NCBI GenBank assembly: GCA_001804705.1
Contig: MHAY01000002.1
Coordinates: 20,183-84,182 of the forward strand
Reading direction: 5' to 3'
Origin: Ignavibacteria bacterium RIFOXYC2_FULL_35_21
GTDB taxonomy: Bacteria > Bacteroidota > Ignavibacteria > Kapaibacteriales > UBA2268
Length of the DNA: 64,000 nt
Of this stretch, positions 3,413-53,880 are shown piece after piece; the first letter of the stretch is position 1, and every line of letters begins with the position of its first letter. Made by a program: the position numbers and the translations under genes. Under the pieces are notes generated by a model. It did not search any database and was not told the DNA's origin. It was given only the letters and a program-made list of their open reading frames with translations.

Positions 3413-3447
3413 TGTAAAATGTAAAATGCAAAATGCAAAATGAATAA
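3411..3447. repeat. 7-nt-period microsatellite (aaatgta/aaatgca)n
   Basis: Direct reading: aatgtaaaatgtaaaatgcaaaatgcaaaatgaat between two + strand genes. Confidence 0.9.
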
Positions 3448-3471
3448 TTAAAATGGTATTTAAAGCAATAT

Positions 3472-4515: not shown

Positions 4516-4521
4516 CTTTTT

Positions 4522-4926: not shown

Positions 4927-4933
4927 GAATTAT

Positions 4934-5464: not shown

Positions 5465-5541
5465 AATTCTCCTAATTTTATTTTATTTGGACACTATTTA
5501 ATAGTAATAACAAAAATTTTTCGATTTTGTTACAGAGATAT

Positions 5542-7044
5542 TTAAAATAAAAATAAATTAAAGCACTGATGGCTTAAATTAATTATATATGACGGAAATA
5601 CTCCAAAAATAATTAATGCGACAGAAGCTATTCCCAATGTAACATACGATAAGCCTTTTTCTGTTTCTTGTAATTTTTCTCCCGGTTCTTTGAAATACAT
5701 ACTAATAACCAAACCGATATAGAAGTATAATGAAATAAGAGAAGCAATAACTGCTATTATAGCAAGCCACACATAGCCGCTTTCGATTACGGAGGCAAAC
5801 AAATAATACTTACCTATAAATCCGGCAAAAGGCGGTATTCCGGTCAATGAAAACATGAATATACCCATAGTGGCTGCCAGAATTGGATGAGTTCTGCTTA
5901 ATCCTGCATAATCGCTTATATCGAGATTTGCTTCATTATTGCGTTCTAATAATGATATAATTACAAATGCTCCAATCTGCATAAACATATATGCTACAGC
6001 ATAAAACGCTATTCCATCCCATCCTTTTGGATTGTTGGCAACAATACCCATCAATAAATAACCGGCATGTGCAACCGATGAATAAGCCAACATTCTTTTT
6101 ACATTCTTTTGTACTAAAGCACTGATGTTTCCGATTAACATTGTTGCGGCGGATATTAATGCTATAATCAATCTTATAGTATCACCATTAAAAATTTGAT
6201 TTAGCTCATGTTTTTCAATATCCTGAGGTATCAATGGGCGAATGACAATGACCATTGCAAGAAGTGCCGCCGCTTTGCCTGCAGTACTCATAAAACCTGC
6301 TACTACAGTTGGAGCCCCATGATAAACATCCGGTGCCCACTGGTGAAATGGAAATGCCGCGACTTTGAAACTTAATCCGATAATCAATAAACCGACTCCT
6401 ATGCTTAAAATAAGAGGTGCTTTTACCACTGTTGTCATAAAGAAAGTTGCTTTGTTTATATCTATGTTACCTGTAGCTCCATAAATCAAAGCCATTCCAT
6501 ATAAAAGGAATCCTGTTGCAAATGCTCCAAGCAAAAAATATTTCAGTGCCGCTTCGACTGACCTGGCATTTGTTCTGAAAAAACCTGAGAGTATATAAAA
6601 CGATATTGACATTAATTCAATTCCAATGAAAAGAACAAGCAAATTGTTAGCATGTCCTATTATCATCATTCCGGCAATCGAAAGAAGTATTAATGAATAA
6701 TATTCGTTTATTTCTTTATATTCTCTTTTCAGGTATTGTTTCGAAGCAAGAATAGTCAATATACCCGCGACACAAAATAGAATATCGAAGAATGCGGCAT
6801 AGCCGCTGAATACCAACATTCCTTTTGTAATCAACCTATCACTGTGATGAGCAGGAATAAGTGCAACGTTTGTTTTATATAGACTAAAAACCGCAGCAAT
6901 GATGGTTATTATCAATCCAATAATTGAATAATAAAACCCGACGGATTTGTTTTTTAATAGAATCGCATCAATTACAATCGCACTCGTTGCAAAAAAAGAT
7001 ATTAATATTGCCGGCAATATAAATTGTATTTCATATCCCATCAT
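5542..7044 (-). CDS. nuoN: NADH-quinone oxidoreductase subunit N
   Basis: Polytopic antiporter-like protein with FPFHQWAPDVYHGAPT and KRMLAYSSVAHAGY motifs. It lies last in the L-M-N order. Confidence 0.9.
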   Translation of the reverse strand: MMGYEIQFILPAILISFFATSAIVIDAILLKNKSVGFYYSIIGLIITIIAAVFSLYKTNVALIPAHHSDRLITKGMLVFSGYAAFFDILFCVAGILTILASKQYLKREYKEINEYYSLILLSIAGMMIIGHANNLLVLFIGIELMSISFYILSGFFRTNARSVEAALKYFLLGAFATGFLLYGMALIYGATGNIDINKATFFMTTVVKAPLILSIGVGLLIIGLSFKVAAFPFHQWAPDVYHGAPTVVAGFMSTAGKAAALLAMVIVIRPLIPQDIEKHELNQIFNGDTIRLIIALISAATMLIGNISALVQKNVKRMLAYSSVAHAGYLLMGIVANNPKGWDGIAFYAVAYMFMQIGAFVIISLLERNNEANLDISDYAGLSRTHPILAATMGIFMFSLTGIPPFAGFIGKYYLFASVIESGYVWLAIIAVIASLISLYFYIGLVISMYFKEPGEKLQETEKGLSYVTLGIASVALIIFGVFPSYIINLSHQCFNLFLF

Positions 7045-7090
7045 TTTTTTTAACCTGCTCTTTTAATTTCATTATTTATAATTTTTATTT

Positions 7091-7112
7091 GGACAGAACA
7101 CTTTTCTGTCCC
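7091..7112. repeat. REP-like palindrome family C (ggacagaacaNNtgttctgtcc)
   Basis: ggacagaacacttttctgtccc. Related copies at 11095-11115 and 63507-63527. Confidence 0.8.
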
Positions 7113-7120
7113 TTCATAGA

Positions 7121-8707
7121 TTATTTATTTTTATTAACAGAATAGTGTTTTACCTGTGACACTTTCACTTTAATATTCTTTTGATTACCCGATTTAACGA
7201 GTTCTAATTTATTAACTAATGCTTTTGTTGAGTTTTCGGATATTTTCAAAAATGAGTTTGGGTGAACACCAATCCAAACAATTAAAATAACAATCGGTAT
7301 TAAAGTTGCCCATTCACGCTTATTCAAGTCTTTTAAATTTTCATTTTTGTGATTTGTAATTGTTCCGAACATCACTCTCTGGAACATCCACAAGAGATAA
7401 ATTGCGGCAAAAATCACTCCCGTTGCCGAAACAATGGTGTACCATTGTGAACCAAGCACTGGTGATTTGAATGCTCCGAATAACGTTAAATATTCACCTA
7501 TAAATCCGTTTAATCCCGGCAAACCGACCGAACCAAGCATAGCTATTCCAAAGAATACGGTAAACGCAGGCATAACCCTCGCCAATCCTCCAAATTCGGC
7601 TATATCCCTTGAGTGCCTTCTTTCGTAAATCATACCCACACACAAGAAGAGCATCCCTGTTGTCAAGCCATGATTGACCATTTGAATAATTGCTCCCTGC
7701 AACCCTTCGATTGTCATTGAAAATATTCCAAGTACCACAAAACCCAAGTGGCTGACTGATGAAAAAGCTACAAGTCTCTTGACATCAGTTTGGACCATAG
7801 AAACCAGAGCTCCATAAATTATTCCAATAACAGCGAGAACGCCTATGTAAGGAGCAAATTCAATAGATGCCTGCGGGAATAATTCTAAATTAAATCTAAC
7901 TAAACCATATGTACCCATCTTTAATAATACGCCGGCAAGTACAACCGAACCTGGTGTTGGTGCTTCTGTATGGGCATCGGGCAGCCATGTATGTAATGGG
8001 AATACCGGAACTTTTATACAGAATGACAAAGCGAATGCAATGAAGAGCCATCTCTGTACTTCGATTGGTATAGGATGATTTGATAATGCACTCTTTAAGA
8101 CAAAAAAGTTTGTTGTGAATCCTGCACTGTTATGTATAATATATGTTCCTGTATAATATCCTAACCAGACTATTGCAACGAGCATGAACAATGAGCCGAC
8201 TGCTGTAAAAATGAAAAATTTTACTGCGGCATAAATCCTATCTTTGCCTCCCCAGATGCCAATTATGAAATACATCGGAATCAGAATTAATTCCCAAAAA
8301 ACAAAGAACAGCAGTAAGTCGAGTGCAAGGAACACACCTGTCATTGCAAACTGTAATAATAATATCATCGCATAATATTCTTTCTCACGTTTTTCGATTG
8401 CTCCGAATGACGATAATATTGTTATTGTTGAAATAAATGTTGTCAGTAATAGTAACAACAATGACATTCCGTCAAGTCCTATCCTGAACCCTGCATCAAT
8501 AGAGGGAATCCAGACTGCCTCGAAAACCAACTGGAAATTCGGATTATTCTGATTGAAGAAATATAAAAGAAAGAGTGAAACAACAAAAGTAACAAATGAA
8601 AATCCAAACGCCGTATATTTTATTAGCTTGGGTTTATCCTTATTCAATAGTAAAAGAAATAATGAACCTGCCAAAGGTAAAAATAACGTTATAAATAAAG
8701 GGGCCAT
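7121..8707 (-). CDS. nuoM: NADH-quinone oxidoreductase subunit M
   Basis: FPLHTWLPDAHTEAPTPGSVVLAG and KRLVAFSSVSHLGF motifs. The start is moved to the internal ATG at 8707 because the first 11 codons of the tracked ORF translate the aattcac microsatellite. Confidence 0.88.
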   Translation of the reverse strand: MAPLFITLFLPLAGSLFLLLLNKDKPKLIKYTAFGFSFVTFVVSLFLLYFFNQNNPNFQLVFEAVWIPSIDAGFRIGLDGMSLLLLLLTTFISTITILSSFGAIEKREKEYYAMILLLQFAMTGVFLALDLLLFFVFWELILIPMYFIIGIWGGKDRIYAAVKFFIFTAVGSLFMLVAIVWLGYYTGTYIIHNSAGFTTNFFVLKSALSNHPIPIEVQRWLFIAFALSFCIKVPVFPLHTWLPDAHTEAPTPGSVVLAGVLLKMGTYGLVRFNLELFPQASIEFAPYIGVLAVIGIIYGALVSMVQTDVKRLVAFSSVSHLGFVVLGIFSMTIEGLQGAIIQMVNHGLTTGMLFLCVGMIYERRHSRDIAEFGGLARVMPAFTVFFGIAMLGSVGLPGLNGFIGEYLTLFGAFKSPVLGSQWYTIVSATGVIFAAIYLLWMFQRVMFGTITNHKNENLKDLNKREWATLIPIVILIVWIGVHPNSFLKISENSTKALVNKLELVKSGNQKNIKVKVSQVKHYSVNKNK

Positions 8708-8726
8708 AAAATAATTAACAATTAAT

Positions 8727-8765
8727 AATTCACAATTCACAATTCACAATTCACAATTCACAATT
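8727..8765. repeat. 7-nt-period microsatellite (aattcac)n inside the nuoL-nuoM spacer
   Basis: Five or more consecutive aattcac units read directly. Confidence 0.9.
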
Positions 8766-8830
8766 AATAACTCAATCACAAAATATATTTCAAAAAATAT
8801 AAAAATATTATAATCCTTTTGTCCTATTCC

Positions 8831-8882
8831 ATTTTGCATTTTGCATTTTACATTCTACATTCTAAATTCTAAATTCTACATT
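8831..8882. repeat. 7-nt-period microsatellite (attttgc/attctac/attctaa)n inside the nuoL-nuoM spacer
   Basis: attttgcattttgcattttacattctacattctaaattctaaattctacatt. Confidence 0.9.
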
Positions 8883-8886
8883 AATT

Positions 8887-10857
8887 TCAATAACTAAAAA
8901 TCAACCATGCAATAATCAAAATAATACCGCCCATCATTAGCAGTGCATAGTTTTGAGCGACTCCTGTCTGAATACGTCTGATTTTCTCGCCGGCTCCGAC
9001 TGTAACAGTTGCTAATCCGTTGACGAAACCATCTATAATTTTTACATCAAATATCTTCCAGAGGAAACTCTGTGATAATTTTAATATCGGAGTTCCTATA
9101 ATTGCGAAATAAATCTCATCAAGCGAATATTTATTTAACAATAATTTATATACAGTTTGAAATCTTCCAGCCAATGCTCTGGGGAATGCCCATTGTTCAT
9201 CGCTGTAAAACCGTTTTGCAAGATATATGGCAGTTAGGGCAATACCAACAGAAACAAGCATTAATATATATTCAATCGAATGAATCTGATGTCCTTCGGT
9301 TCTTTGTAAAATTACCTGGGCAGGCTGAAATACAGGATGGAGCCACGATTCGAGCAAATTGGGTTTGGTGTTGAACCAGAAGCCGAGTGCATAAGGAACA
9401 CCAAGAAAACCACCTACAGCCGACAGGAAAGCGAGTATGATTAAAGGTAAAGTCATCACTTTTGGCGATTCATGCGGATGAACATGGTGGTGGTCAAACC
9501 TTTCCTTACCGTGAAATGTTAACTTTAACAATCTGAACATATAGAATGCAGTGAAGAAAGCCGCTGTGGCACCTATCAGCCAAAGAAAAATATTTCCGTT
9601 GCTGAAAGCATTCCATAATATTTCGTCCTTTGAAAAGAAGCCGCTGAAAAACGGAATTCCTGAGATAGCCATCGTTGCGACAAAAAATGTTTTATATGTA
9701 ACGGGCATATAACTTTTCAGTCCACCCATGTTTTTTATGTTCTGTTCATCATGCATGCCGTGAATGACCGAACCTGCACCAAGGAAGAGCAGTCCTTTGA
9801 AGAATGCATGTGTCATTACATGGAATACTCCTGCAGTGAATGCCCCAACACCGAGAGCCGCAAACATATACCCAAGCTGGCTTACAGTAGAATAAGCCAG
9901 TACCTTTTTTATATCATTTTGAACAAGTCCTATTGTAGCCGCAAAAAATGCCGTTGCTATTCCGACAATAGCCACAACTTCCATCGAGACAGGGGAGAGT
10001 GCAAACAATACCGAGTTTCTTGCAACTAAATATACACCCGCTGTAACCATCGTTGCGGCATGAATGAGGGCTGAGACAGGTGTTGGCCCTGCCATCGCAT
10101 CGGGAAGCCAGACTGCAAGTGGTATTTGTGCAGATTTACCGGTGCAACCTAAAAACATCAGTAACGTGATTGCTGTAATTGTCCCGCTTCCGAAATATTT
10201 CATCGTATCTGCAGCGGCGAGGCTCGAAACTTCAGTGTATTGCAACGAACTGAATTCATTAAATATTAAAAACATTGCTATGATGAATCCAAAGTCTCCG
10301 ATTCTGTTTACTATGAATGCCTTGTTTCCCGCATCTCCTGTCCATGTGATTTTATAACCTTCGAATTTCCTGTCATACCAGAATCCGATTAGCAGATAAG
10401 AGCAAAGCCCAACGCCTTCCCATCCAAGAAATGTGAATAATAAATTATCGGCAAGAACAAGATTCAGCATCATAAAGATAAACAGATTCATATATGAAAA
10501 GAACCTGTAATAGCTCCTGTCACCCCTCATGTAGCCGATTGAGTAAACATGGATTAAAAAGCCGACGCCAGTTACAATCAAAGAAAAAAGAATTGACAGT
10601 TGGTCAACCTGGTATGAAACGTTAATGTTTAATGCTCCTGTTTCAATCCATTTGTAAACCGGTACTAATAGGGGTTTTTCATGCCCCTTGCCCATAAAGT
10701 CGAAAAATATAATAAGCGATATTATTAACGAGCCAAACACAGTTCCACTTCCGATTGTGCCTATGATTGCTTCTTTTTTAAAATATTTTCCAAATAATCC
10801 TAAGATAAGAAAGCCTATGAATGGGAGCAGAGGGACATACTTGATTAATTCATGCAT
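8887..10857 (-). CDS. nuoL: NADH-quinone oxidoreductase subunit L
   Basis: 656 aa. WLPDAMAGPTPVSALIHAATMVTAGVY and KKVLAYSTVSQLGYM motifs, with a long C-terminal extension typical of NuoL. Confidence 0.9.
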   Translation of the reverse strand: MHELIKYVPLLPFIGFLILGLFGKYFKKEAIIGTIGSGTVFGSLIISLIIFFDFMGKGHEKPLLVPVYKWIETGALNINVSYQVDQLSILFSLIVTGVGFLIHVYSIGYMRGDRSYYRFFSYMNLFIFMMLNLVLADNLLFTFLGWEGVGLCSYLLIGFWYDRKFEGYKITWTGDAGNKAFIVNRIGDFGFIIAMFLIFNEFSSLQYTEVSSLAAADTMKYFGSGTITAITLLMFLGCTGKSAQIPLAVWLPDAMAGPTPVSALIHAATMVTAGVYLVARNSVLFALSPVSMEVVAIVGIATAFFAATIGLVQNDIKKVLAYSTVSQLGYMFAALGVGAFTAGVFHVMTHAFFKGLLFLGAGSVIHGMHDEQNIKNMGGLKSYMPVTYKTFFVATMAISGIPFFSGFFSKDEILWNAFSNGNIFLWLIGATAAFFTAFYMFRLLKLTFHGKERFDHHHVHPHESPKVMTLPLIILAFLSAVGGFLGVPYALGFWFNTKPNLLESWLHPVFQPAQVILQRTEGHQIHSIEYILMLVSVGIALTAIYLAKRFYSDEQWAFPRALAGRFQTVYKLLLNKYSLDEIYFAIIGTPILKLSQSFLWKIFDVKIIDGFVNGLATVTVGAGEKIRRIQTGVAQNYALLMMGGIILIIAWLIFSY

Positions 10858-43446: not shown

Positions 43447-46400
43447 TTGAAAAATTTATTTTCATTATTCGTTTCAATAATAATAATATCAACGTCAGTA
43501 AATTTATTTTCGCTGACTACAAATAAAATAGGAAATCCCCCTGAATCCCCCTTTAATAAAGGGGGAAATTCAAGAACAATTTCAGATTGTCTCAGGCAAA
43601 TTGATAATAAAGACAAGGAAGGGAGGCATCTTTACTATTCTGATAAAATTTATATCAAACTTAAAAAAGATGCTAAAGCTTTTTTAAAAACTTCGGATGA
43701 ACTGCAAGGAACTGTTAACTACAGATTTGGTATTAGCAGTATTGATGAAAAACTCCTGAAGTATGGTGTAAAAACTAATAAGACATTCAAACAAAGAAAA
43801 GAGTTACTTCAAAAAAATAAAGACCATATTCAATCTACAAAGCAGGAATTACCTGACCTTTCGAGAATCTATACATTAGTATTGTCAGGAGTAACTCCTG
43901 ACAGGGATGGGTGGAATAAAATCAGAAAAGTTTTGAAGGAGTTTGCTGATGACCCGAATATCGAGTATGCAGAACCTGTTCCTATCAGGTATTTACTTGA
44001 AATACCGAACGATTCACTTTACAGCCGGCAGCAGCATTTACCTCAAATTAAAGCTGATTCGGCTTGGGATGTGTTTAAAGGAGAAGATGGAACTAAGGAA
44101 ATAATAATTGGTATTAGCGATACAGGTGTCGAATGGGACCATCCTGATTTAATGCGAAATCTGAAACAAAATTTAGGTGAAGATGCAGACGGTGACGGGC
44201 ATGTGATAGAGTATAGTGAAAACGACAGTGCATGGGTGTTGGACCCGGGTGATACAAACCATATTGATGATGACGGTAACGGATACGTTGATGACTTTAT
44301 CGGCTGGGACTTCCTTACGGATTGGACAAGCAAGGGAGAAGGGAATGATCCATGGGATTACAACAGCCACGGAACTCATGTATCAGGAATTGCAGCCGGT
44401 GTTACAAATAATGATTCTGGAATTGCATCAATAAGTTACAATGTGAAATTTTTACCTACATCACATTCATCACAAAGTTATAATAATATATATAAAGGAT
44501 ATGAAGGCATTGTTTATCTTGCAGAAAACGGTGCAGATGTGATTAATTGCAGTTGGGGCGGTGGTGGTTATTCTGCCGCAGAAGCGGAGTCAATTGCTTA
44601 TGCAACAGGATTAGGTGCCATACTTGTCATTGCTGCAGGAAATGATAATAGCGATGAGCATTTCTATCCTGCATATTATCCCAATGTAATAAGCGTAGCC
44701 TCGGTTGGCGTTAACGACAGAAAAGCAAATTATTCAAATTATGGAATTGGTGTTGATATTGCAGCACCGGGAGGTGATTATGGTAACGGTGGTGGTATTT
44801 TAAGTACCTTATTGAATCACAGTTACGGAAGCTACCAGGGTACATCAATGGCAAGTCCTGTGGCGGCAGGGTGTATGGGATTTCTTAAGGCATTTCATCC
44901 TGATTGGTCAATTGCACAACTTGAAACACAATTTTTTGGTACCGCCGATAATATTGATTCGATGAATGCTAATTATATAAATAAACTTGGTGCAGGAAGG
45001 GTAAATCCGTATAGGTCACTGATTGAAACCAATCCTTCGATTCCAAAAAAATTAAGATTAGAACTTTACAGGGTGGTAACTAATGATTCCCTATCTGATA
45101 ATGACGGAGCTTTGGAACCCGGAGATACTGTAAATATAGGATTTGTAATTAGAAATTATACTCATTTGTTAACTTCTAATTCAGTCAATTTTACACTTGA
45201 GTCTCTCGACCCGGATATTGAAGTAATTAAAAATTCATATACAGGAAGTGTTAATCCGGATGGATACTCTGAGATTCCACCAGTATTTGAGGTTAAAATT
45301 TCAGAATCAGCAGAAGCAAGGTTCGCAAAACTAAGATTGAAAACTGCCTCCGATAATGAAGAAATTGTTTACGGAAGCTCCATGGATTTTGAAATTCCTA
45401 TTTCAACCGGTGGTGTTCTTGTGTGGGAAGGGATACCAATGCGGGGATTCAGTGGTTCATTTATCAGGGATTTTCTTAAAGAACAGGGAGTAAAAGTAAC
45501 TTATGGTAATGTATTTCCGACAACATTATTTGGTTATGATGCGGTTTTTCTTTCATTCGGAAGTATAGGCTCTACCGAAACCGGAGCTTCAATGGGGCTT
45601 ACCAGCTTCGATGACTGGATGGCAGATGTAGTAAAGAATTATTTATTAGATGGCGGCAAAGTTTATATTGAAGGTACTGAGATTTTTGGGTGGGACCAGA
45701 GAAATAATTCTGAATTACTTGGTTTATTCGGAATAAAAAGCGGTGATGACGGTGAAAACTATGTAATACTTGATACATTGGAGGGTAATTCATCTGCACT
45801 AACAATTAATATGGAATTTATAGGGTCACATGCTTCCATGTTCCGTTCGATTGATACAGTCATCCCTGATGATAATGGATATAGTTCTTTTTACCAGCCC
45901 GGATACGGAACAGTTTCAGTTCAAAACATCGGTTTTTATAACCAGAAAACATTTTACAGTGCCTATCCGATTGCGGAATTGAATGACCATGCACAGCCAA
46001 GTACAAGGTATGAGCTTGTTTCACGCATTATGAATTTCTTAGGTATTCCGATAGATTATACAGTTCCTTATTTTACAGCTCAGCCAATTACTGGACATGC
46101 TCCAATGGAAATCAGTTTTCAGGATAAATCTTTAACTACCAAACCGATTGATAGCTGGTATTGGGATTTTGGCGATAATTCGGGTAATTCAAACGAAAAA
46201 AATCCGGATTGGACTTATGTTAATCCCGGTACTTATGATGCAAAAATGACGATTACAAGAAACATTAAAAATTATGATACAACGAAAAGTGTATATATAT
46301 TTGATGGGGAAAGCGCCCTCGACTTTAATGGAAGTAGCGGCTATGCACAGGTTCAACCAAATACACCTATTAATTTTTTCAATAAGCTTACAATCGAAGC

Positions 46401-48315
46401 GTGGATAAAGCCTCGAAGCGGCGGCAGGGGCTATTTCGGCAGAATAGCCGACAAAACTAATTTCATGTTTTACATTGCCGGTGACAGATCAATTCGTTTT
46501 ACATTTACTAATGACAGCAATAAAACATCAAATGTATTTACAGATAGATTTAAATTGAATTTTAATGTTTGGCAGCATGTAGCTGTTACTTATGATGGCG
46601 ATAGTATTGTGAAATTCTATGTAAATGGAAAAAATATTAACGATACATTATTCATTACTCAAAATCAACCCAGAGGATTAATAAAAAGAACTACTAATAA
46701 TCTGCTTATTTTCGGGAATAACTCTAATTATAACAGGCCATTCGATGGTGCAATTGATGAAATCAGAATGTGGAGTGTAGAGAGGACCCAACAGGAATTG
46801 ATTAAGAATATGAATACGATTCTTAATGGAGATGAGTTTGGCCTTGCAGGATATTGGCGGTTTCAGGAGGGGAAAGGTTCAGAAACAGAAGATGAAACTC
46901 AATATAATGATATTGCATCTGTTTACTCAGATTGGCGGCAGGGATGGCATAGTGGTTATATTAAATCACAGCCTGTGAGTCAGTTATTATGCCAAGGGCA
47001 GGATGCATCATTTTCAATTAATGCCGTTGGCGGAGAAAAATCATTAACGTATAAATGGTATAAGGACGAGCAGCCTTTAACAGGTGATAGCAGGGTAGTC
47101 GGTGTTGATTCAACAACTCTTGTGGTGAATAACATCATAAAAAGCGATGAAGGAAACTATTTTGTTGTAATCACCGCTATTCCGGGTAATATAAAAACAT
47201 CATCGGATACTGTAGAGTTAAAAGCTAAGGTTAATGTAACTTTACAGCGAGAAGAACCTTTAAGAGAAATAAAAGTTGATGATAGGGGAGAAATGCTTCT
47301 TTCTGTAGATGCAACAGGTGAGGCACCTATTTTTTATAAATGGTATAAAAATGATGTCCTGATACCGGGAGCCGATAATTCTTCATTCAGGAAATTTCCT
47401 TTTATAAAACAAGATGAAGGACGTTATTACTGTATGGTTTCAAACCAGTGTAATAATGTGGTTTCGGACACTTTTAATGTTAAACTTAATGCCGTATCAA
47501 TTGACACACAACCTTTGGAGCAATCGGTTTGCGAAGAACAAGATGCAACCTTTACAATATTAGTTTACGATGCAGGTAAGACATTATCATATCAATGGTA
47601 TAAAGATAATCAGCTTTTAGTCAATGGGAGCAGAATTTCAGGGATTGATTCATCAACGCTTCGAATAAATAATACTATCGAACAGGACGAAGGAAATTAT
47701 TATGCACAAATAATTGCTAATCCCGGCAATATTCAGTTGAATACAAATTCTGCATTCTTAACGATCAAGGACAGTGCATCTGTCCAAAAGAGCGATTCGA
47801 TAAGAAAAGTCAGGGTGAAAGAAGGTGATGATTTGCTATTAACTGTAGAAGCTTCAGGGGAGGCTCCGCTAAGTTATAAGTGGTATAAAGATGATGTAGA
47901 GATTCCCGGCACAGATAGTTCAACTTACTTCAAATCACCTTTCGCAAAAGAGGATGCAGGATTATACTATTGCATAGTATCGAACGAGTGCAATTCGGCT
48001 ATTTCAGATACTTTCGATGTTATTCTAAGATATACATCTGTTGATGATTATACAACTGATGAATTAATAAAAGTATATCCGAATCCTTTTAACGGTATAA
48101 CTACATTTTATCTGAGCCTTCAAATACCGCATTCAGTAAGGCTTGTGATTAATGATATTCTTGGCAATGAAGTATCGGAAATAACCAATCAGAAGTTAGA
48201 AGCGGGATTACATAGATACAATTTCAATGCTGAAGGATTATCGAGCGGAATATATTTTTATTCTCTGAATATTGAGGGTAAGAAAATAACAGGATTGTTG
48301 AATTTAATTAAATAA
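43447..48315 (+). CDS. Giant T9SS-secreted subtilisin-like (S8) peptidase with PKD, LamG and four Ig-like domains
   Basis: TTG start preceded by agggag. Signal peptide. S8 triad contexts SDTGVEWDHPDL, HGTHVSGIAAG and GTSMASPVAAG. PKD (WYWDFGDNSGNS...GTYDAKMTIT). LamG (LTIEAWIKP...FDGAIDEIRMWS). Four repeats of (Y[KQ]WYKD...DEGNY). C-terminal KVYPNPFNGITTFYLSL...GIYFYSLNIEGK sorting domain. Confidence 0.88.
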   Translation: MKNLFSLFVSIIIISTSVNLFSLTTNKIGNPPESPFNKGGNSRTISDCLRQIDNKDKEGRHLYYSDKIYIKLKKDAKAFLKTSDELQGTVNYRFGISSIDEKLLKYGVKTNKTFKQRKELLQKNKDHIQSTKQELPDLSRIYTLVLSGVTPDRDGWNKIRKVLKEFADDPNIEYAEPVPIRYLLEIPNDSLYSRQQHLPQIKADSAWDVFKGEDGTKEIIIGISDTGVEWDHPDLMRNLKQNLGEDADGDGHVIEYSENDSAWVLDPGDTNHIDDDGNGYVDDFIGWDFLTDWTSKGEGNDPWDYNSHGTHVSGIAAGVTNNDSGIASISYNVKFLPTSHSSQSYNNIYKGYEGIVYLAENGADVINCSWGGGGYSAAEAESIAYATGLGAILVIAAGNDNSDEHFYPAYYPNVISVASVGVNDRKANYSNYGIGVDIAAPGGDYGNGGGILSTLLNHSYGSYQGTSMASPVAAGCMGFLKAFHPDWSIAQLETQFFGTADNIDSMNANYINKLGAGRVNPYRSLIETNPSIPKKLRLELYRVVTNDSLSDNDGALEPGDTVNIGFVIRNYTHLLTSNSVNFTLESLDPDIEVIKNSYTGSVNPDGYSEIPPVFEVKISESAEARFAKLRLKTASDNEEIVYGSSMDFEIPISTGGVLVWEGIPMRGFSGSFIRDFLKEQGVKVTYGNVFPTTLFGYDAVFLSFGSIGSTETGASMGLTSFDDWMADVVKNYLLDGGKVYIEGTEIFGWDQRNNSELLGLFGIKSGDDGENYVILDTLEGNSSALTINMEFIGSHASMFRSIDTVIPDDNGYSSFYQPGYGTVSVQNIGFYNQKTFYSAYPIAELNDHAQPSTRYELVSRIMNFLGIPIDYTVPYFTAQPITGHAPMEISFQDKSLTTKPIDSWYWDFGDNSGNSNEKNPDWTYVNPGTYDAKMTITRNIKNYDTTKSVYIFDGESALDFNGSSGYAQVQPNTPINFFNKLTIEAWIKPRSGGRGYFGRIADKTNFMFYIAGDRSIRFTFTNDSNKTSNVFTDRFKLNFNVWQHVAVTYDGDSIVKFYVNGKNINDTLFITQNQPRGLIKRTTNNLLIFGNNSNYNRPFDGAIDEIRMWSVERTQQELIKNMNTILNGDEFGLAGYWRFQEGKGSETEDETQYNDIASVYSDWRQGWHSGYIKSQPVSQLLCQGQDASFSINAVGGEKSLTYKWYKDEQPLTGDSRVVGVDSTTLVVNNIIKSDEGNYFVVITAIPGNIKTSSDTVELKAKVNVTLQREEPLREIKVDDRGEMLLSVDATGEAPIFYKWYKNDVLIPGADNSSFRKFPFIKQDEGRYYCMVSNQCNNVVSDTFNVKLNAVSIDTQPLEQSVCEEQDATFTILVYDAGKTLSYQWYKDNQLLVNGSRISGIDSSTLRINNTIEQDEGNYYAQIIANPGNIQLNTNSAFLTIKDSASVQKSDSIRKVRVKEGDDLLLTVEASGEAPLSYKWYKDDVEIPGTDSSTYFKSPFAKEDAGLYYCIVSNECNSAISDTFDVILRYTSVDDYTTDELIKVYPNPFNGITTFYLSLQIPHSVRLVINDILGNEVSEITNQKLEAGLHRYNFNAEGLSSGIYFYSLNIEGKKITGLLNLIK
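43533..43570. repeat. Family A REP inside the S8 peptidase CDS
   Basis: aaatccccctgaatccccctttaataaagggggaaatt is the reverse-orientation equivalent of the intergenic copy at 25021-25058. It is translated as GNPPESPFNKGGN, directly after the signal peptide. Confidence 0.85.
43883..43903. repeat. Family B palindrome inside the S8 peptidase CDS
   Basis: tgtcaggagtaactcctgaca, translated as LSGVTPDR in the pro-region. Confidence 0.85.
48070..48312 (+). other. T9SS C-terminal sorting domain of the S8 peptidase
   Basis: The last ~80 aa begin KVYPNPF and end ...GIYFYSLNIEGKKITGLLNLIK. Confidence 0.8.
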
Positions 48316-48361: not shown

Positions 48362-50470
48362 TTATTGTTTGAATAATTCCTCCACTCCCTTTGTTCTGCC
48401 TGTGTTGACTATGAGTATTTTTGAGGATTTGGGGATTGAGTCTTTCATTTGGAGGAGCAATGCGAGGCCAGCCATGCCCGAAGGCTCGAATTTTATTTTT
48501 TGTGATGATGCGATTTCAATTGCACGGTCAACATTACTTTCATCAACATTGTAGATGCCTGTCATTTGCCCAACGCAGTCGTATTCTTCTTTCAATTCAA
48601 CTATGTATTTTTTGAATGAATCGAGTGAAGGAAGAAAACTTGAGAATAATTTATCAAGCCGTGAATTAGGCTTGTTCGTAGAAGCTCCTATGAAACTGCA
48701 TTTCTTCAAAGTATTGACATCGCTGAAAAAGCGAGGGTCGTGCTTTGCAACGAATGAATTGAAGTATTCGATTTTCACTATGTTGAGGACATTGATAAAC
48801 AAATCACCGGTGCCGAAAGGAATGAAACAATAATCAGGCTTTTCACGTAGGATTTCGTAGCTCATCCAGTCGTAGTAATTGTCGTGTGTAGGGTCGAGAA
48901 CTTCGCGGTAAGTTATGTCAATTCCGTTTTGATTGCTGGTAATTTCTTTAATTTCATCTGATGTCAACAGTTTTTCGGACAAGTCGCATTGATATAGTTC
49001 GCATCCGATTTGTGTGATTGATTCTTTAATACCGTTATTCAGCCTGTTGTCAACGAGTACTTTTAATCGAGTCGGAATTTTGAAAAGATTAAATAGATGC
49101 TGGATAGCAATAGCCGCACTTCCGGAGGAGATGATGGACATCTGGGGAAGAGAGTCCTGGTTTTTGTACTTCAGGCTTTCAATCAATGACTTGTATTTAA
49201 TAACAACTTCCCAAGCCATCCTGTCTTTGTGTGTGCCTGTCGGATTTGTGCTTTCATCTTTGAGCCACATATTTGAAAAGCCGGGTATATGGATTTTGTA
49301 AGTTTCGGAAGCAGGAAACTTTGGCGTATAAAACGGCTCAGGCGGAAACTCCGGTTTATTTGGATTATTTGTTGAAGGAATTTTTATTCTCTTGTAAGTT
49401 AATTCAAGTGAAGAGCTGATTATATGCGGCTTTGTCAGCTTTGGCAATAAGGCTGTTAGCTCTTCATATTTGTTTATTTTATTGAGTAAAATTTCATAGT
49501 ATATTTTATGCTGATTTTCACGAATGATATCGAGAAGGTCATGAAGCTTTTCGATGATTTTCTTGATTTCATCAAACTCTGTACGCAGCTTTTTATAAAA
49601 TTCTTTTTCTTTTTTGTCGCTGATTAGCAGCTTATGATTTTTTTCGAGTTTTTCTATTCGCAATTTCCAATACTTAAGCAATTCCGACCTGCCGAGAGAA
49701 TCGAATAAATTAAAATCACCTTCGTAAACATCTTTGAGAAGGATGTGGAATGTGTGGCTGAGATATAAGTCCGGGTGGAACTTTGTCAGGTCAATAAGTT
49801 CCCTGAGGCAGTTCTCATTTTGAAGGAAATCACGGCTGATAATAATAAATACCTGCTCGTTTGAATCGAGGCCATTGTACAGTTCAAGCAAAGAGCCTTT
49901 GCTGAAAGTTTGTGAATTCCTGATTTCGGTTTCGACAATTATATCAAATTTATCTTTCAGGTAAGCACCAATTTTTTCGGATTCGCTCATATTATTGAGT
50001 GTCGAAGAAATAATTACTTTTAATTTTTGAGAGGGTGCTTTATAAACAGAAAAATCTTCTAATAATTTTTTTTCAAATCTTTTCTGGTCAAATCTTTTTC
50101 TTCCATGAGAAAAAAGATAGCAAATATCAATGTTGTATTCCTGAAATTGCAGGTTCTTGGCTTCTTTGTTAGTGTATAATAGGTTTCTGAAGAAAGTATT
50201 ACCCGGAACAATTTCGTAGTCGGGTAAATCCTGAATTTTAATATCGGTGTTCTGCTGTTCTTCAATTTCTTTAAGTTTATTAATAATTATTTCCCGAAGC
50301 TCTTCGTAGTTGGGTAGGTGGGCATTGAATTTTTTTGTACCGCCTTCGGATTCATATTTCTCACGGATTTTTTGCCTGAGCTTGTCCAGTTCTTCTTTGT
50401 CAACTTTAATCCAGCCGCTTTTAAGTATAATTTCCTGTTTCATTATTTCATTATTATTGATTTTACTCAA
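48362..50470 (-). CDS. Multidomain protein: unknown N-terminal domain + TIR-like domain + coiled coil + fold-type-II PLP-dependent enzyme domain
   Basis: See the domain features and finding below. TIR-like order KVIISS / DIIVETEI / GSLLELYNGL / VFIIISRDFLQNENCLRELIDL. PLP-enzyme motifs WLKDESTNPTGTHKDRMA, SSGSAAIAIQ, IPFGTGDLF. Confidence 0.6.
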   Translation of the reverse strand: MSKINNNEIMKQEIILKSGWIKVDKEELDKLRQKIREKYESEGGTKKFNAHLPNYEELREIIINKLKEIEEQQNTDIKIQDLPDYEIVPGNTFFRNLLYTNKEAKNLQFQEYNIDICYLFSHGRKRFDQKRFEKKLLEDFSVYKAPSQKLKVIISSTLNNMSESEKIGAYLKDKFDIIVETEIRNSQTFSKGSLLELYNGLDSNEQVFIIISRDFLQNENCLRELIDLTKFHPDLYLSHTFHILLKDVYEGDFNLFDSLGRSELLKYWKLRIEKLEKNHKLLISDKKEKEFYKKLRTEFDEIKKIIEKLHDLLDIIRENQHKIYYEILLNKINKYEELTALLPKLTKPHIISSSLELTYKRIKIPSTNNPNKPEFPPEPFYTPKFPASETYKIHIPGFSNMWLKDESTNPTGTHKDRMAWEVVIKYKSLIESLKYKNQDSLPQMSIISSGSAAIAIQHLFNLFKIPTRLKVLVDNRLNNGIKESITQIGCELYQCDLSEKLLTSDEIKEITSNQNGIDITYREVLDPTHDNYYDWMSYEILREKPDYCFIPFGTGDLFINVLNIVKIEYFNSFVAKHDPRFFSDVNTLKKCSFIGASTNKPNSRLDKLFSSFLPSLDSFKKYIVELKEEYDCVGQMTGIYNVDESNVDRAIEIASSQKIKFEPSGMAGLALLLQMKDSIPKSSKILIVNTGRTKGVEELFKQ
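48365..49318 (-). other. PALP (tryptophan-synthase-beta-like) PLP-dependent domain (residues ~385-702)
   Basis: NPTGTHKDR places a Lys (K415) where the family has its PLP lysine. Gly-rich phosphate-binding loop FGTGDL. Confidence 0.65.
49685..50023 (-). other. TIR-like domain (residues ~150-262)
   Basis: Motif order and spacing match bacterial TIR domains. The candidate catalytic Glu is E196. Confidence 0.5.
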
Positions 50471-50563: not shown

Positions 50564-50600
50564 CAAAAAAGGATTAACCTTTAGAATTAATCCTTTTTTA
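50564..50600. terminator. Bidirectional-type intrinsic terminator ending the cytochrome operon
   Basis: aaaaaa-aggattaa-(9 nt)-ttaatcct-tttttt. On the minus strand the hairpin is followed by ttttttgtttt. Confidence 0.7.
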
Positions 50601-50615
50601 AAAATTTGTGTTCAA

Positions 50616-50972
50616 CTAATAAACAACCGTAGATAAATTATGCAGCCAGTTACACAAAATATCAAGGTCTTCCTTCTTACCTTTGAAAGCTACTGGATGT
50701 TTTTTATTAATAAGCTTAACCTTTTTTTTCAGGTAATCTTTAATAATTTCTACTTCTAATGAATCACCAACGGTTGACAAATCAGTTAGCGATTTTTTAG
50801 TTGTATCACTACATTCAATAACCTGAGACTTGATGGAATGGCATCTATTGCACTTCATTTCCAAAAAGATAATACTGCCGCTTCTGACAGGATAATCCTG
50901 ACTGATAAGCAAAGAACTGAAAACAAATATTAAAATAAGTGCAACAAAAATATTTAATTTTAAAAATTTCAT
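50616..50972 (-). CDS. Small secreted monoheme c-type cytochrome
   Basis: Signal peptide and a single CNRCH (CxxCH) motif. Confidence 0.6.
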   Translation of the reverse strand: MKFLKLNIFVALILIFVFSSLLISQDYPVRSGSIIFLEMKCNRCHSIKSQVIECSDTTKKSLTDLSTVGDSLEVEIIKDYLKKKVKLINKKHPVAFKGKKEDLDILCNWLHNLSTVVY

Positions 50973-51040
50973 TTATAGATATTTTACCTATTTATATTAC
51001 ACCTACCCCAGCTCTTCCTCATAGGAAGGGATAATTAATT

Positions 51041-51075
51041 ATTCATTCGTAATTCGTAATTCATAATTCGTAATT
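51041..51075. repeat. 7-nt-period microsatellite (aattcgt/aattcat)n abutting a stop codon
   Basis: attcattcgtaattcgtaattcataattcgtaatt. Confidence 0.9.
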
Positions 51076-51445
51076 AATTATTCGGTGCTCCTTTATTAAT
51101 CCAAGCAATAATTTGGTCGGCATCACAGCTACTCAACAGGCTCCTCATTGAACCTCCCGGAATTATAGCATTTTGTAATTTGCCATTATCAACATTTGTT
51201 TTGACATTAGCATAACCATTCAAATCTACACCTCCGGCACTACCATGGCAACTAACACATTTGGATGCTAAAATATTTTGAATAGTAACCGTAAAAGTTA
51301 CATTTACTGTATCACAGCCACCGGGAGGAGGAGGTGCAACATATATTTCATCCTGTTCGCATGATATTAAGAAAGATGATATTGAAATTATTGCAACGAT
51401 TGCAAACAGGCTAAAAATTCTATAATTTTTTATTTTATTTCTCAT
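51074..51445 (-). CDS. Monoheme c-type cytochrome lipoprotein (PSCyt1-like domain)
   Basis: Lipobox FLISC and a Pro-rich linker. IQNILASKCVSCHGSAGGVDL...GGSMR...IIAWINKGA resembles the planctomycete-type cytochrome c domain. Confidence 0.6.
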   Translation of the reverse strand: MRNKIKNYRIFSLFAIVAIISISSFLISCEQDEIYVAPPPPGGCDTVNVTFTVTIQNILASKCVSCHGSAGGVDLNGYANVKTNVDNGKLQNAIIPGGSMRSLLSSCDADQIIAWINKGAPNN

Positions 51446-51495
51446 AATTTAACCTTTCGTTTGATTTGTCTTTATTTTCATAAATAAGAAAAATT

Positions 51496-52677
51496 TTAAT
51501 AAAATATATGTAATTGGAATGTCCATTCCGCCGAATAACCCGGCACCTGTTCGCTGTTGTAAATCCTGTATTCCGGAAGCAAATCAATATATGGAAGAAG
51601 ATTTACATGAGCGCCGAATACAAATTGATTAGTATAGAAAGGATGATTTTCAACTTTATATTTTGTTACACCTCTTTCTGCACGGACAAACGGCAAAACA
51701 GCATCTGTAACAGCATAAGTTACTTCAGCAAGAAAATTAAGCGTTAACCTGCTATCCTTTTTCTCAGAACGCATATATTCTGTCATCAAAGCGAGCTGTT
51801 CGGTTAATCCAATATTGAAAAATACGCTTGAAATATAATAATCATCGTTCAATAAATAAGTTCCACCAAAGAAAGTTGTAACTCCATCAATAATATTCGG
51901 AGGTGTAATAAATGCTCTTAAAACAGTTGATACGGAACCTGTGTCAACAACAGGGATAGTAGTATTTGCTTTACTTTTTGTTGTTAACTTAATCATATTT
52001 TTTGTATCAAACATACCAACCGATAGTCCAACCCAATCGAGAGCTTCGTAATCAATTTGAGCTCCGAATTCTGCATAATCACCAGGAATAAGCGGCCTGG
52101 TTTGTCCCTTCCAGATGCCTGTGACTTCTCTGATTAGCATGGTATGGTCATCATACTTAGTTCCGATAGTGGGCTGGAAGTAGCCAACACGCAGTGACGG
52201 CAACTTCTCGGATGGTTTGATATACATGCTTGCAGAATATGGATTCTGCCCTACAAATCTTTTATCGGAAGCAATGTCATAGGCAATGTTGTAAAATCCT
52301 TCGAATCCAAGCCAGTTAAATGGCTGTAAAATTATGAAAGGAGATAGTTGCATTACCATCATATCTCTACCGATAGGTGGTCCCCATCGTGCAGACTGAA
52401 GGCGGAAATCAACTCCAAATGTTGCAACCTCGTTGAAAACTGTATTTGTTTCCATTGCATCGTATAATCCCTGCAAACCAATTGTTCCCGGATTTATAAG
52501 GCTAATATCTTTTCTTGCCATCCAACCGGGCTGAGTGCGGGCTCCACCGCCCTGAGTGTTATAATGACAGCCTATGCACTTTGTACCAAAATTCTGAAGA
52601 ATAGAATACTGAGGCCTTGCATTTGCAAAAGCAATAGTTAACATTAATAAAATTGTAATTAGAAAATATTTTTTCAT
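51496..52677 (-). CDS. Cyc2-like fused monoheme cytochrome-porin (outer-membrane beta-barrel with an N-terminal CxxCH)
   Basis: Signal peptide ...AFANA. The protein's only two Cys residues form CIGCH at residues 34-38, preceded by RPQYSILQNFGTK. The remaining ~350 aa alternate hydrophobic and polar residues and end WTFQLHIFY (an OMP beta-signal-like terminus). Confidence 0.6.
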   Translation of the reverse strand: MKKYFLITILLMLTIAFANARPQYSILQNFGTKCIGCHYNTQGGGARTQPGWMARKDISLINPGTIGLQGLYDAMETNTVFNEVATFGVDFRLQSARWGPPIGRDMMVMQLSPFIILQPFNWLGFEGFYNIAYDIASDKRFVGQNPYSASMYIKPSEKLPSLRVGYFQPTIGTKYDDHTMLIREVTGIWKGQTRPLIPGDYAEFGAQIDYEALDWVGLSVGMFDTKNMIKLTTKSKANTTIPVVDTGSVSTVLRAFITPPNIIDGVTTFFGGTYLLNDDYYISSVFFNIGLTEQLALMTEYMRSEKKDSRLTLNFLAEVTYAVTDAVLPFVRAERGVTKYKVENHPFYTNQFVFGAHVNLLPYIDLLPEYRIYNSEQVPGYSAEWTFQLHIFY

Positions 52678-52779
52678 ATAATACCTTTGAAAATTGATTT
52701 ATAATTCTTTTTAAAATTAAAAAATAATTATGCAGAAAAAAAGCTCCAGCAATAATATGTTGAAGCTTTTTTATAAAAA

Positions 52780-52807
52780 GATTGTCAGGGTCTAAGCCCT
52801 GACAATC
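52780..52807 (-). terminator. Strong hairpin between the hexaheme gene and the cyc2-like gene (terminator/attenuator)
   Basis: gattgtcaggg-tctaag-ccctgacaatc (11-bp perfect stem) with a T-run on the minus strand. A second, weaker hairpin (agcttc...ggagct + T7) follows at about 52741-52772. Confidence 0.6.
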
Positions 52808-52821
52808 TTTTTTTAAGAAAA

Positions 52822-53880
52822 TTATTTGCCTAAATATTGCAAGCCGTTATTAACTAATGCTTTGATGTATGCCGGATTATGAACACCTTTACTGCGGTCT
52901 TTTGCTACGTATAAGTAATTTAAGACTACTTCGACATCAGTCGGATTGGGGAAAGCAACTTTTGCTTGGTCAGCCCTAAAATATTCACCTAATACGTTAT
53001 AACCCTCTGCTGAAACAGCAGCAGTTGTATCTAACCAACCTTTGTCAATCAATGCCTGTCTGTAGATTACAAGTTTGGGTCCAATATCATTTTGAATTGC
53101 TGCCTTACTTATTGTAGTAGAGTCGTGGCAGTTTCTACATTCGACAATCTTGGCAAGATTTGGTGGTGTCATCAAGAATGTATGTCCGCCAGCTGCAGGA
53201 TTTGATGGGTCAGAACCCATGTGGCAGGAAACGCATCCTTTCGGCAATGAAGCATGCTGGTTGATTGTTGGGTATGTATCATCACCTGTTATTTGATATG
53301 GTCCATTCATAGTAACGACATTAGCTACAACGCCATAATGTGGACCAAACCTTGAATATGTTGTTCCGCTGACTCTGCTGATTGTGTCAGGAACTGTACG
53401 TGTAAAAGGACGAGCCTGATGGCATTTCGAACATAAATTGCCATCTTTCTGGTCAATCATTGCACCAGTATGACGAAGAGCAAAACCTGCTGTGATTCTT
53501 CTTGCGAAATCAGTTGTGTCGAAATTCTTGTGAATAGTATGACATGCTTTGCAATTGATTTTTGAGGATGCTTTTGATACAGGGTCATTTTGTCCCAATG
53601 TTGCAGCTTCTGCAAAACCGTCGCCAGTATGACAGCCGCCACAAGCTAATCTGCCGGCTTCTTCTTCATAAATAACACCGGTGTTGTGCCTAGATAGGTG
53701 ATACTGATTAAATTTCAGATTCACATCATCAGCATCAGCACCATGACAAACAGCACATACAATTTCTGCAGATGGCCCTGCAGGCCCTTCGGGTCCTGTA
53801 CAAGAAATAAACATACTTGTTATTCCGAGGACTGTTAAAAGTCCGAATAACTTCCAAATTAGACTTTCAAACTTTTTCAA
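52822..53880 (-). CDS. Hexaheme c-type cytochrome lipoprotein
   Basis: Lipobox MFISC followed by a GPEGPAGPS linker. Six CxxCH motifs: CAVCH, CGGCH, CKACH, CSKCH, CVSCH, CRNCH. Confidence 0.8.
   Translation of the reverse strand: MKKFESLIWKLFGLLTVLGITSMFISCTGPEGPAGPSAEIVCAVCHGADADDVNLKFNQYHLSRHNTGVIYEEEAGRLACGGCHTGDGFAEAATLGQNDPVSKASSKINCKACHTIHKNFDTTDFARRITAGFALRHTGAMIDQKDGNLCSKCHQARPFTRTVPDTISRVSGTTYSRFGPHYGVVANVVTMNGPYQITGDDTYPTINQHASLPKGCVSCHMGSDPSNPAAGGHTFLMTPPNLAKIVECRNCHDSTTISKAAIQNDIGPKLVIYRQALIDKGWLDTTAAVSAEGYNVLGEYFRADQAKVAFPNPTDVEVVLNYLYVAKDRSKGVHNPAYIKALVNNGLQYLGK

Follow-up and report, generated by a model that had tools for sequence, protein, structure and literature searches.

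A gene cluster for a porin-cytochrome and a hexaheme lipoprotein, conserved among Ignavibacteria and Kapabacteria, as a candidate outer-membrane end of an extracellular electron transfer pathway

Cyc2 is a marker gene for neutrophilic iron oxidation, and multiheme porin-cytochrome complexes are markers for metal reduction. Here we describe a cluster of four c-type cytochrome genes (g1 to g4) in a 64,000-nt stretch of contig MHAY01000002.1 of Ignavibacteria bacterium RIFOXYC2_FULL_35_21; this whole stretch is called the window below. The cluster joins a protein of Cyc2 architecture (g2) to a hexaheme lipoprotein (g1) and two small monoheme cytochromes (g3 and g4), and in relatives of the window also to further multiheme partners and a putative quinol dehydrogenase. 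The Ignavibacteriota are recurrent in anode biofilms, aquifers and iron-rich springs. We propose, with a probability of roughly 55% for the mechanism set out below, that the region encodes the outer-membrane end of an extracellular electron transfer (EET) pathway.

The MtrCAB, MtoAB and Geobacter OmbB-OmaB-OmcB systems are built on the same plan as this cluster, with a barrel in the outer membrane, a multiheme cytochrome that is a lipoprotein, and cytochromes in the periplasm; the link of the MtrCAB type to an inner-membrane quinol dehydrogenase also recurs in relatives of the window. The MtrB barrel has 26 strands. In contrast, g2 has 16 predicted strands and a heme of its own, and does not sheathe a separate deca- or octaheme protein. 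No MtrA-, MtrB- or OmbB-like gene was found in the window by Pfam and by a scan of open reading frames (ORFs), and the cluster has no sequence relation to MtrB, MtrA or OmbB. The initial annotation had observed that the arrangement is neither the textbook cyc2/cyc1/rus one nor that of MtrCAB, and this remains a fair description of a 16-strand barrel with a fused heme and a hexaheme partner. The second point of comparison is Cyc2, an Fe(II) oxidase in which a cytochrome is fused to a porin and which is known from Acidithiobacillus, Zetaproteobacteria, Gallionellaceae and Chlorobium. In the definition of Keffer et al. 2021, it carries the motif AxPxFAR[Q/K][T/Y] before the heme motif and PxL after it, in a 16-strand porin of at least 365 amino acids (aa), and its structural templates are OprP/OprO, as they are for g2 (PMC8406198). 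The third is OcwA, the cell-surface terminal iron-oxide reductase of Thermincola, which has an NrfA-like fold (PMC6703420; PMC9250108). Searches of the literature on the cluster itself, on Cyc2 from Kapabacteria and on multiheme lipoproteins with collagen-like runs returned no description, and surveys give only generic 'Cyc2-like' or FeGenie matches in Ignavibacteriales (PMC8478452). We regard the cluster as a variant of known systems (Cyc2, porin-cytochrome conduits) and not as categorically new; what we say of its function is read from sequence.

Among ORFs of at least 80 aa, g1 to g4 are the only ones in the window that carry a CxxCH motif, and all four lie co-oriented on the minus strand. 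The ORF list and translations bore out the positions and heme motifs initially given for them. The heme motifs are invariant across homologues of the cluster proteins and are therefore not chance occurrences. Related loci were collected by a one-genome-per-species scan, which returned 80 loci (L numbers below).

The g2 protein has a signal peptide with a predicted cut between ANA and R and a single heme motif, CIGCH (residues 34-38), 13 residues into the mature chain; its C-terminus is HIFY. Pfam and NCBIfam scans assigned it to no family, and its profile retrieved nothing meaningful from the PDB sequences. All named members among its 107 close homologues are called 'hypothetical protein' and come from metagenome-assembled genomes (MAGs) of Ignavibacteria, Kapabacteria or Bacteroidota. 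An exhaustive profile search gave 501 cluster representatives at E<=0.001, and the best 150 of these 501 all belong to the same unnamed family. In the AlphaFold2 (AF2) model of g2 (predicted local distance difference test, pLDDT, 83.6) the N-terminal heme segment is poorly defined, and 16 long beta-strands follow it. In Foldseek searches against the PDB the model matched general porins, with the top query template-modelling scores (TMq) for OprP (2o4v, 0.56) and OprO (4rjw, 0.55), each at a probability of 1.00.

These features place g2 close to the published definition of Cyc2 in overall build: a signal peptide with a single N-terminal CxxCH, 393 aa against the required 365 or more, and, on its predicted structure (AF2, Foldseek), a 16-strand OprO/OprP-like porin. 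With an N-terminal heme, 16 predicted strands and OprP/OprO templates, g2 thus presents the Cyc2 architecture. Further likenesses are the Ala at position -1 of the signal-peptide cut followed by x-P-x-aromatic, a CxxCH that lies no more than about 13 residues into the mature chain, a total of about 400 aa, and a small c-type cytochrome gene following its own. The defining motifs, on the other hand, are missing. The protein reads ARPQYSILQNFGTKCIGCH and then YNTQGGG, in which the Ala, Pro and aromatic positions are kept (A-R-P-Q-Y-S-I-L-Q, with Tyr for Phe); it has no R-[Q/K]-[T/Y], its spacer is two residues longer than the canonical one, and QGGGxR stands after the CxxCH in place of PxL (canonically CxxCH-xxF-PEL). 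Unlike Cyc2, g2 also has a family-specific invariant DDHT motif and a barrel without detectable sequence homology to that of Cyc2, and multiheme partners and a quinol-dehydrogenase module are conserved along with its gene; no partners of this kind are reported in the Cyc2 loci and papers that we compared.

To compare the two families directly we used six full-length genes with the canonical motif (from Caballeronia, Methylocystis, Ideonella, Ralstonia, Paraburkholderia and Polymorphobacter), obtained by tblastn of one real N-terminal fragment against plasmids. The fragment came from a search with a probe alignment of Cyc2-like N-termini, which returned gene fragments of 50-84 aa, so the motif exists in nature. 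The six fit the published motif, but none is a Cyc2 validated by biochemistry, which makes the homology test a proxy. The proteins are 446-508 aa long with one CxxCH each; in five of them P-x-F-[A/N]-R-Q-T-G-x-x-C-x-x-C-H precedes an F-P-E-L-type segment, and the Polymorphobacter protein has PSFAAQT and PQL. A c-type cytochrome gene follows the canonical Cyc2-type gene in 4/5 annotated loci. On the Caballeronia plasmid (L081 1927-2238) the gene of canonical Cyc2 type has a gene for a high-potential iron-sulfur protein (HiPIP) on its upstream side and one for a c-type cytochrome on its downstream side.

A proxy hidden Markov model (HMM) of the six canonical sequences gave g2 5.7 bits (E 1.2) and more distant members of its family 19-23 bits; the latter read LPRFALxxGxxCxxCH, with the same P-to-C spacing as the canonical ALPAFARQTGxxCxxCH. 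When a profile of 213 g2-family sequences was aligned with the canonical six by hhalign, the probability was 93.6% (E 2e-7), with the signal confined to 26 N-terminal columns; the N-terminus of the family alone scored 95.9% and the barrel alone 0.7%. By the published definition g2 is not a Cyc2; judged on these comparisons it represents a distinct, unnamed sister family, and the heme-binding N-termini of the two families probably share a common ancestry. The label 'Cyc2-like', which g2 had received at the outset, holds for the architecture and for a remote N-terminal signature at the level of the family profile, and fails for the published motifs and for the direct score of g2. With no Pfam or NCBIfam model, uninformative protein names and a proxy score far below significance, the g2 family is probably missed by surveys that rely on known markers. 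The electron-transfer potential of these organisms may therefore be undercounted or given the wrong direction.

The neighbour of g2, g1, runs from a signal peptide through the lipobox Cys27 and GPEGPAGPS (three Gly-X-Y triplets) to six CxxCH motifs, and closes with a helical bundle ending in a GVHNP motif. In the family alignment the six heme motifs, the lipobox Cys and the GPxGPxG run are all invariant, in agreement with the initial view of g1 as a hexaheme lipoprotein on a collagen-like tether. Of 120 homologues, 115 have a Gly-X-Y run of at least three triplets after the lipobox Cys, with a median of 6-7 triplets and a maximum of 15, which puts the three of the window at the short end; one homologue matches the Pfam Collagen family PF01391. 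Searched with Pfam, g1 itself gave generic multiheme matches and weak matches to MtrC domain II/IV below the curated cut-off. An MtrC/OmcA-like identity was rejected, its Pfam matches being sub-threshold, and so was an OmcS-like one, for which there was no match.

The closest relative that we could find for g1 is OcwA. Among PDB sequences the family profile matched OcwA best (6i5b, E 2.8e-8), followed by NrfA (3ubr, 4e-6; 8bcx, 1e-5); the OcwA match spans the final two heme motifs, a conserved segment with a distal histidine (GGH in g1, SH in OcwA) and the GVHN C-terminal helices. The AF2 model (pLDDT 87) again retrieved OcwA first in Foldseek (E 1e-4, TMq 0.48, 306 aligned columns, 20% identity), and NrfA structures next. 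By sequence profile and predicted protein fold, g1 is thus a remote relative with the NrfA-type heme-binding core and C-terminal helical bundle. OcwA and OmhA, multiheme terminal reductases at the surface of the Gram-positive Thermincola and Carboxydothermus, belong to the NrfA/c554/MccA superfamily and have nine and eleven hemes, respectively, against six in g1. In contrast to both, g1 is a diderm lipoprotein that has a collagen-like stalk and a porin-cytochrome for a partner. It also lacks the His-His pairs that flank the two open-coordinated hemes of OcwA (PMC9250108), and with six CxxCH and no CxxCK it departs from NrfA proper, which has five hemes and a CxxCK catalytic heme. The g1 family has five invariant non-motif histidines for six hemes and a Met after heme motif 5, so one heme could be His/Met-ligated or open-coordinated.

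The same superfamily relationship could mean that g1 is an NrfA-family enzyme that reduces or oxidises a soluble compound of nitrogen or sulfur, such as nitrite, hydroxylamine, NO or sulfite, with g2 as its porin or electron donor and without any role for minerals or electrodes. We consider this very unlikely. The NrfA matches by profile and Foldseek are what such an enzyme would give, and with five invariant histidines for six hemes one heme could be open-coordinated; against this, g1 has no CxxCK and matches OcwA better than any bona fide NrfA. To our knowledge, the Nrf, Hao and Mcc systems have neither a lipid anchor with a collagen-like stalk nor genes so closely linked to those of a porin-cytochrome and a 13-heme wire. 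No enzyme characterised in the superfamily corresponds to g1 with its six hemes in 352 aa (table in PMC9250108). In vitro, OcwA does reduce nitrite and turn over hydroxylamine, but its nitrite turnover is very slow, about 1 per minute (PMC6703420). The initial annotation had singled out a known nitrite- or hydroxylamine-type enzyme as the identity that would count against an electron conduit; the superfamily of NrfA was indeed found, with the surface metal reductase OcwA as the nearest relative within it.

The two remaining genes of the cluster encode one-heme proteins. g3 is a lipoprotein (lipobox LISC) with one CVSCH, whose mature N-terminus, CEQDEIY, is followed by a Pro-rich linker; a conserved Met, read from the sequence, is a candidate distal heme ligand. 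Its Pfam and NCBIfam matches are to class-I cytochromes c, weak and all below curated cut-offs, and there was no match to PF07635 (PSCyt1) at E<=0.1. Two relatives with two domains (L045 and L067), both of which align with g3, match PF07635 at 38 and 35 bits (cut-off 22). The name 'PSCyt1-like' initially attached to g3 is thus supported indirectly, through these relatives, and not by a direct match. In the g3 orthologues of L002 (7262-7630) and L003 (7256-7624) C-N-C-H takes the place of C-x-x-C-H, which is either a degenerate heme site or an unusual motif.

Across the related loci, the slot right after the porin gene is almost always occupied by a lipoprotein with a mature C-E-[K/Q/R]-D-E and a proline-rich linker: in the clade of the window this is g3, and in about 28 loci (span L005-L046) it is a Rieske [2Fe-2S] protein with a twin-arginine (Tat) signal. 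The N-terminal motif of g3 and of the Rieske proteins matches the lipoprotein export signal of Bacteroidetes, C-X-K-(D/E)2-X, a signal that was experimentally defined in Bacteroidetes (PMC5080379) and may not be that of Ignavibacteria. This hints at a Rieske protein exported to the surface; g1 carries no such signal. g4, initially described as a small monoheme cytochrome, is indeed one: it is secreted and has one CNRCH. It has a conserved KKHPVxFKG motif, in which the histidine of KKHPV is conserved, and no Met after the heme motif (both read from the sequence), and a weak Cytochrom_C match is all that Pfam returned. It is the most constant downstream partner of the porin-cytochrome gene.

To quantify conservation we counted neighbours in loci that encode a porin-cytochrome of at least 38% identity to g2, using as denominator the loci in which the respective flank was available. 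The hexaheme gene lies directly upstream of the porin gene in 30/38 loci and a g4 homologue downstream of it in 30/35; a 13-heme cytochrome with a C-terminal membrane helix is present in 25/33, and a fusion of cytochrome b with a hexaheme domain, about 730 aa long, in 21/29. In a distant subfamily of porin-cytochromes (below 38% identity) these partners are almost never found, the hexaheme gene occurring in 1/37. A check of gene order in relatives had been suggested by the initial annotation, and it shows the g1-g4 module to be co-conserved across dozens of Ignavibacteria and Kapabacteria genomes. We therefore reject chance adjacency, as the order is kept across dozens of species-level genomes. 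That the four genes are unrelated neighbours, or that g2 is an ordinary porin with a fortuitous CxxCH, is scarcely credible: one could point to the terminators between g1 and g2 (see below), to the lack of a family annotation for g2 and to the g3 proteins of the close relatives L002 and L003, which have no canonical CxxCH, yet in the g2 family the CxxCH is invariant in 25/25 aligned sequences, as is the DDHT motif, and it falls within the N-terminal 90 residues in 213 full-length members.

Most relatives extend the cluster with the Rieske lipoprotein, the 13-heme cytochrome and the cytochrome-b fusion. The fusion consists of a cytochrome b561/PhsC-like domain and a NapC/NrfH-like hexaheme domain (PF01292, 3.7e-25; PhsC NF011582, 1e-55; NrfH, 2e-11), by which we take it to be a putative quinol dehydrogenase, and its co-conservation ties the module to the quinone pool. 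Like CbcL, MtoC and MtrH, it joins a dihaem-b-type membrane domain to a multiheme c domain beside genes for an outer-membrane conduit; unlike CbcL, in which the c-heme domain comes first, it has its cytochrome b domain at the N-terminus (PMC6295460). The window and the loci L001-L004 have only the hexaheme protein, the porin-cytochrome, g3 and g4 (L004 without a g4 homologue), followed by the same pyridoxal-phosphate (PLP)-dependent enzyme. The initial annotation was thus right that no quinol dehydrogenase, oxidase or reductase adjoins the cluster in the window, where the flanking genes encode a CBM9-like secreted protein, a pfkB kinase, a D-Ala-D-Ala-ligase-like protein and the PLP-dependent enzyme, but its description of a self-contained unit does not stand. 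The window holds a reduced version of the cluster, so its inner-membrane partner must be encoded elsewhere, and the module is a conserved, outer-membrane part of a longer pathway. One Kapaibacterium MAG (L037, about 2600-9000) has the hexaheme gene, the Cyc2-like gene and the gene of about 180-190 aa after it duplicated in tandem, and in several other MAGs at least two Cyc2-like paralogues are spread over different contigs (L043/L044, L048/L064, L056/L063).

The analysis shows which genes are present, their heme motifs and predicted folds, their remote relatives and their co-conservation; complex formation, topology, direction and substrate we infer as follows. g2 would form a 16-strand barrel in the outer membrane, with its own N-terminal heme in or under the pore as the single relay across the membrane. 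g1, an OcwA-like hexaheme lipoprotein on a collagen-like stalk, would most likely sit at the cell surface and pass electrons to or from insoluble or macromolecular substrates; the stalk, its variable length, the cassette exchange described below and the role of OcwA itself make surface exposure probable. The lipoprotein g3 and the soluble g4 would act as one-electron carriers between the barrel heme and the rest of the respiratory chain. In most relatives this chain would be encoded alongside, by the Rieske lipoprotein, the membrane-anchored 13-heme cytochrome and the cytochrome-b/NrfH-like quinol dehydrogenase, whereas the lineage of the window would have kept the outer-membrane module only, with inner-membrane partners encoded elsewhere. 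Cytochrome-b/NrfH-type modules are typical of menaquinol oxidation in anaerobic respiration. Outward flow, that is, respiration of Fe(III), Mn(IV), humics or an electrode, appears somewhat more likely than Fe(II) oxidation; we lean to it because of the relationship to OcwA, the menaquinol-type dehydrogenase and the phenotype of the lineage, whose cultured Ignavibacteria have been described as heterotrophic and iron-reducing (PMC8478452; PMC7914226).

The same parts could also carry electrons inward. Here g2 would be a Cyc2-type Fe(II) oxidase, or would oxidise another extracellular donor, g3 and g4 would lead to a terminal oxidase or nitrate-reduction chain encoded elsewhere, and the hexaheme protein would extend the range to solid Fe(II) minerals. 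We hold this to be a serious, though less likely, alternative. It draws on the Cyc2 architecture and N-terminal signature of g2 and on the order of the genes, a small c-type cytochrome gene following the porin gene as in canonical loci, one of which also has a HiPIP; after the porin gene comes either a Rieske protein or a cytochrome in which a Met is the candidate ligand, and such carriers would suit Fe(II) oxidation, assuming a high potential. In its favour, too, CbcL/MtoC-type quinone oxidoreductases are found in Fe(III) reducers and Fe(II) oxidisers alike (PMC6295460), and FeGenie-based surveys give Ignavibacteriales both iron-oxidation and iron-reduction genes (PMC8478452). Against inward flow stand, besides the phenotype of cultured members, the absence from g2 of the Cyc2-defining PxFAR[Q/K][T/Y] and PxL, the terminal reductase OcwA as nearest relative of g1, and the co-conserved cytochrome-b/NrfH-type module in relatives. 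Cyc2 is moreover thought to work alone on dissolved Fe2+, without a multiheme partner (PMC8406198).

Several points weigh against the conduit that we propose. A single barrel heme cannot span the membrane alone, and the docking of partners to it is an assumption. The topology could be the reverse of the one above, as the motif that resembles an export signal is found on g3 and the Rieske proteins and not on g1. These same proteins, g3 with its candidate Met ligand and the Rieske proteins, could be of high potential, which would suit Fe(II) oxidation no less than Fe(III) reduction. In direct comparison g2 has no significant similarity to canonical Cyc2 by the proxy HMM, and homology of the barrel is undetectable. 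The window itself has no inner-membrane module in its 64 kb of scanned ORFs, and strict co-expression is made less likely by the terminators that lie between g1 and g2.

A collagen-like stalk on a cytochrome and a Rieske protein exported to the surface would each, once confirmed, be new, and so small a system (one barrel heme, a six-heme cap and one-centre carriers) is a tractable model for the passage of electrons through a narrow barrel. A more far-reaching version, which we offer as speculation and think improbable, is that 16-strand porin-cytochromes, trimeric like OprP, constitute a distinct class of conduit in which the single in-barrel heme relays electrons between lipoprotein partners, one on each side of the membrane. 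The first would be the hexaheme cytochrome, trimerised and projected by a collagen triple-helix stalk of tunable length, and the other a surface-exported Rieske [2Fe-2S] protein or monoheme cytochrome c with a Bacteroidetes-type export signal. Were this so, Cyc2-type proteins and multiheme porin-cytochrome systems would be the two ends of one evolutionary continuum.

The positions of the four genes and of the terminator-like hairpins among them are collected in Table 1.

Table 1. Cytochrome genes and terminator-like hairpins of the cluster (positions in the window).
Feature	Position	Strand	Description
g1	52822-53880	minus	352 aa, TTG start, hexaheme c-type cytochrome lipoprotein, OcwA/NrfA-superfamily-like
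Terminator-like hairpin 1	52775-52813	minus	right after g1 stop codon
Terminator-like hairpin 2	52736-52772	minus	between g1 and g2
g2	51496-52677	minus	393 aa, fused monoheme cytochrome and predicted 16-strand outer-membrane porin
g3	51074-51445	minus	123 aa, monoheme c-type cytochrome lipoprotein, PSCyt1-related
g4	50616-50972	minus	118 aa, small secreted monoheme cytochrome c
Terminator-like hairpin	50565-50599	minus	3' of g4

The initial annotation had treated the four genes as one operon and had overlooked the tandem terminator hairpins that part g1 from g2-g4. The first, GATTGTCAGGG-cttaga-CCCTGACAATC followed by a T-run, has a folding energy (dG) of -24.1 kcal/mol and a z-score of -6.7 relative to shuffled sequences. 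The second, AAAAAAGCTTCAACA...TGCTGGAGCTTTTTTT and a T-run, lies in a 98-nt stretch with z -2.7, and its sequence is kept in the closest relatives, L001-L004. Wherever a related locus has 79 nt or more between g1 and g2, the hexaheme gene is followed by such a hairpin and a T-run; in the remaining loci the spacer is 0-26 nt and holds no hairpin. These tandem hairpins suggest that g1 is probably a separate or attenuated transcription unit here, transcribed apart from g2-g4 or in excess over them. The spacers between g2, g3 and g4 have no comparable structures, and the run from g2 to g4 ends at the hairpin 3' of g4, AAAAAAGGATTAATT-ctaaa-GGTTAATCCTTTTTT (dG -14 kcal/mol, z -3.1), a terminator already recognised at the outset. 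The 101-nt spacer between g3 and g4 contains, after the g3 stop codon, about 4.4 copies of the heptamer tandem repeat TACGAAT (coding strand; 51045-51075). A scanner for consensus promoters and terminators gave no more promoter-like sites than in shuffled sequence and missed all three terminator hairpins, the first presumably because A/T pairs extend its stem into the T-run.

A comparison with the closely related locus L001 revealed a second peculiarity of g1. The proteins of the flanking genes are 85-94% identical between the two loci and the flanking DNA about 83% identical, and yet the homology of the DNA stops at 53777, just after the region of the lipobox and the Gly-X-Y run, and resumes only at 52772, at hairpin 2. 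Over the mature hexaheme domains the two proteins are only 38% identical. These breakpoints, and the low identity between such similar flanks, indicate that a cassette of about 1 kb, with the mature hexaheme domain, has been exchanged. The replaced segment (window 52773-53776, L001 4099-5091) includes the first hairpin as well as the mature hexaheme domain.

The window has a G+C content of about 35%, and the MAGs most closely related to it bear the labels Bacteroidetes, Ignavibacteriae or Kapaibacterium. An Rfam scan of the whole window returned no match. Directly downstream of the cytochrome cluster, the gene of the PLP-dependent enzyme (48362-50470, minus strand) is an ORF of 702 aa in which the PLP-dependent (PALP) domain takes up residues 395-691 only, leaving an N-terminal extension of 390 aa without a Pfam match; the same ORF lies directly downstream of the cluster in L001-L004, at 81-94% identity. 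Convergent with it on the plus strand (43447-48315) is an ORF for a secreted protein of 1622 aa, whose translation reads as having subtilisin-like motifs and repeated Ig-like segments.

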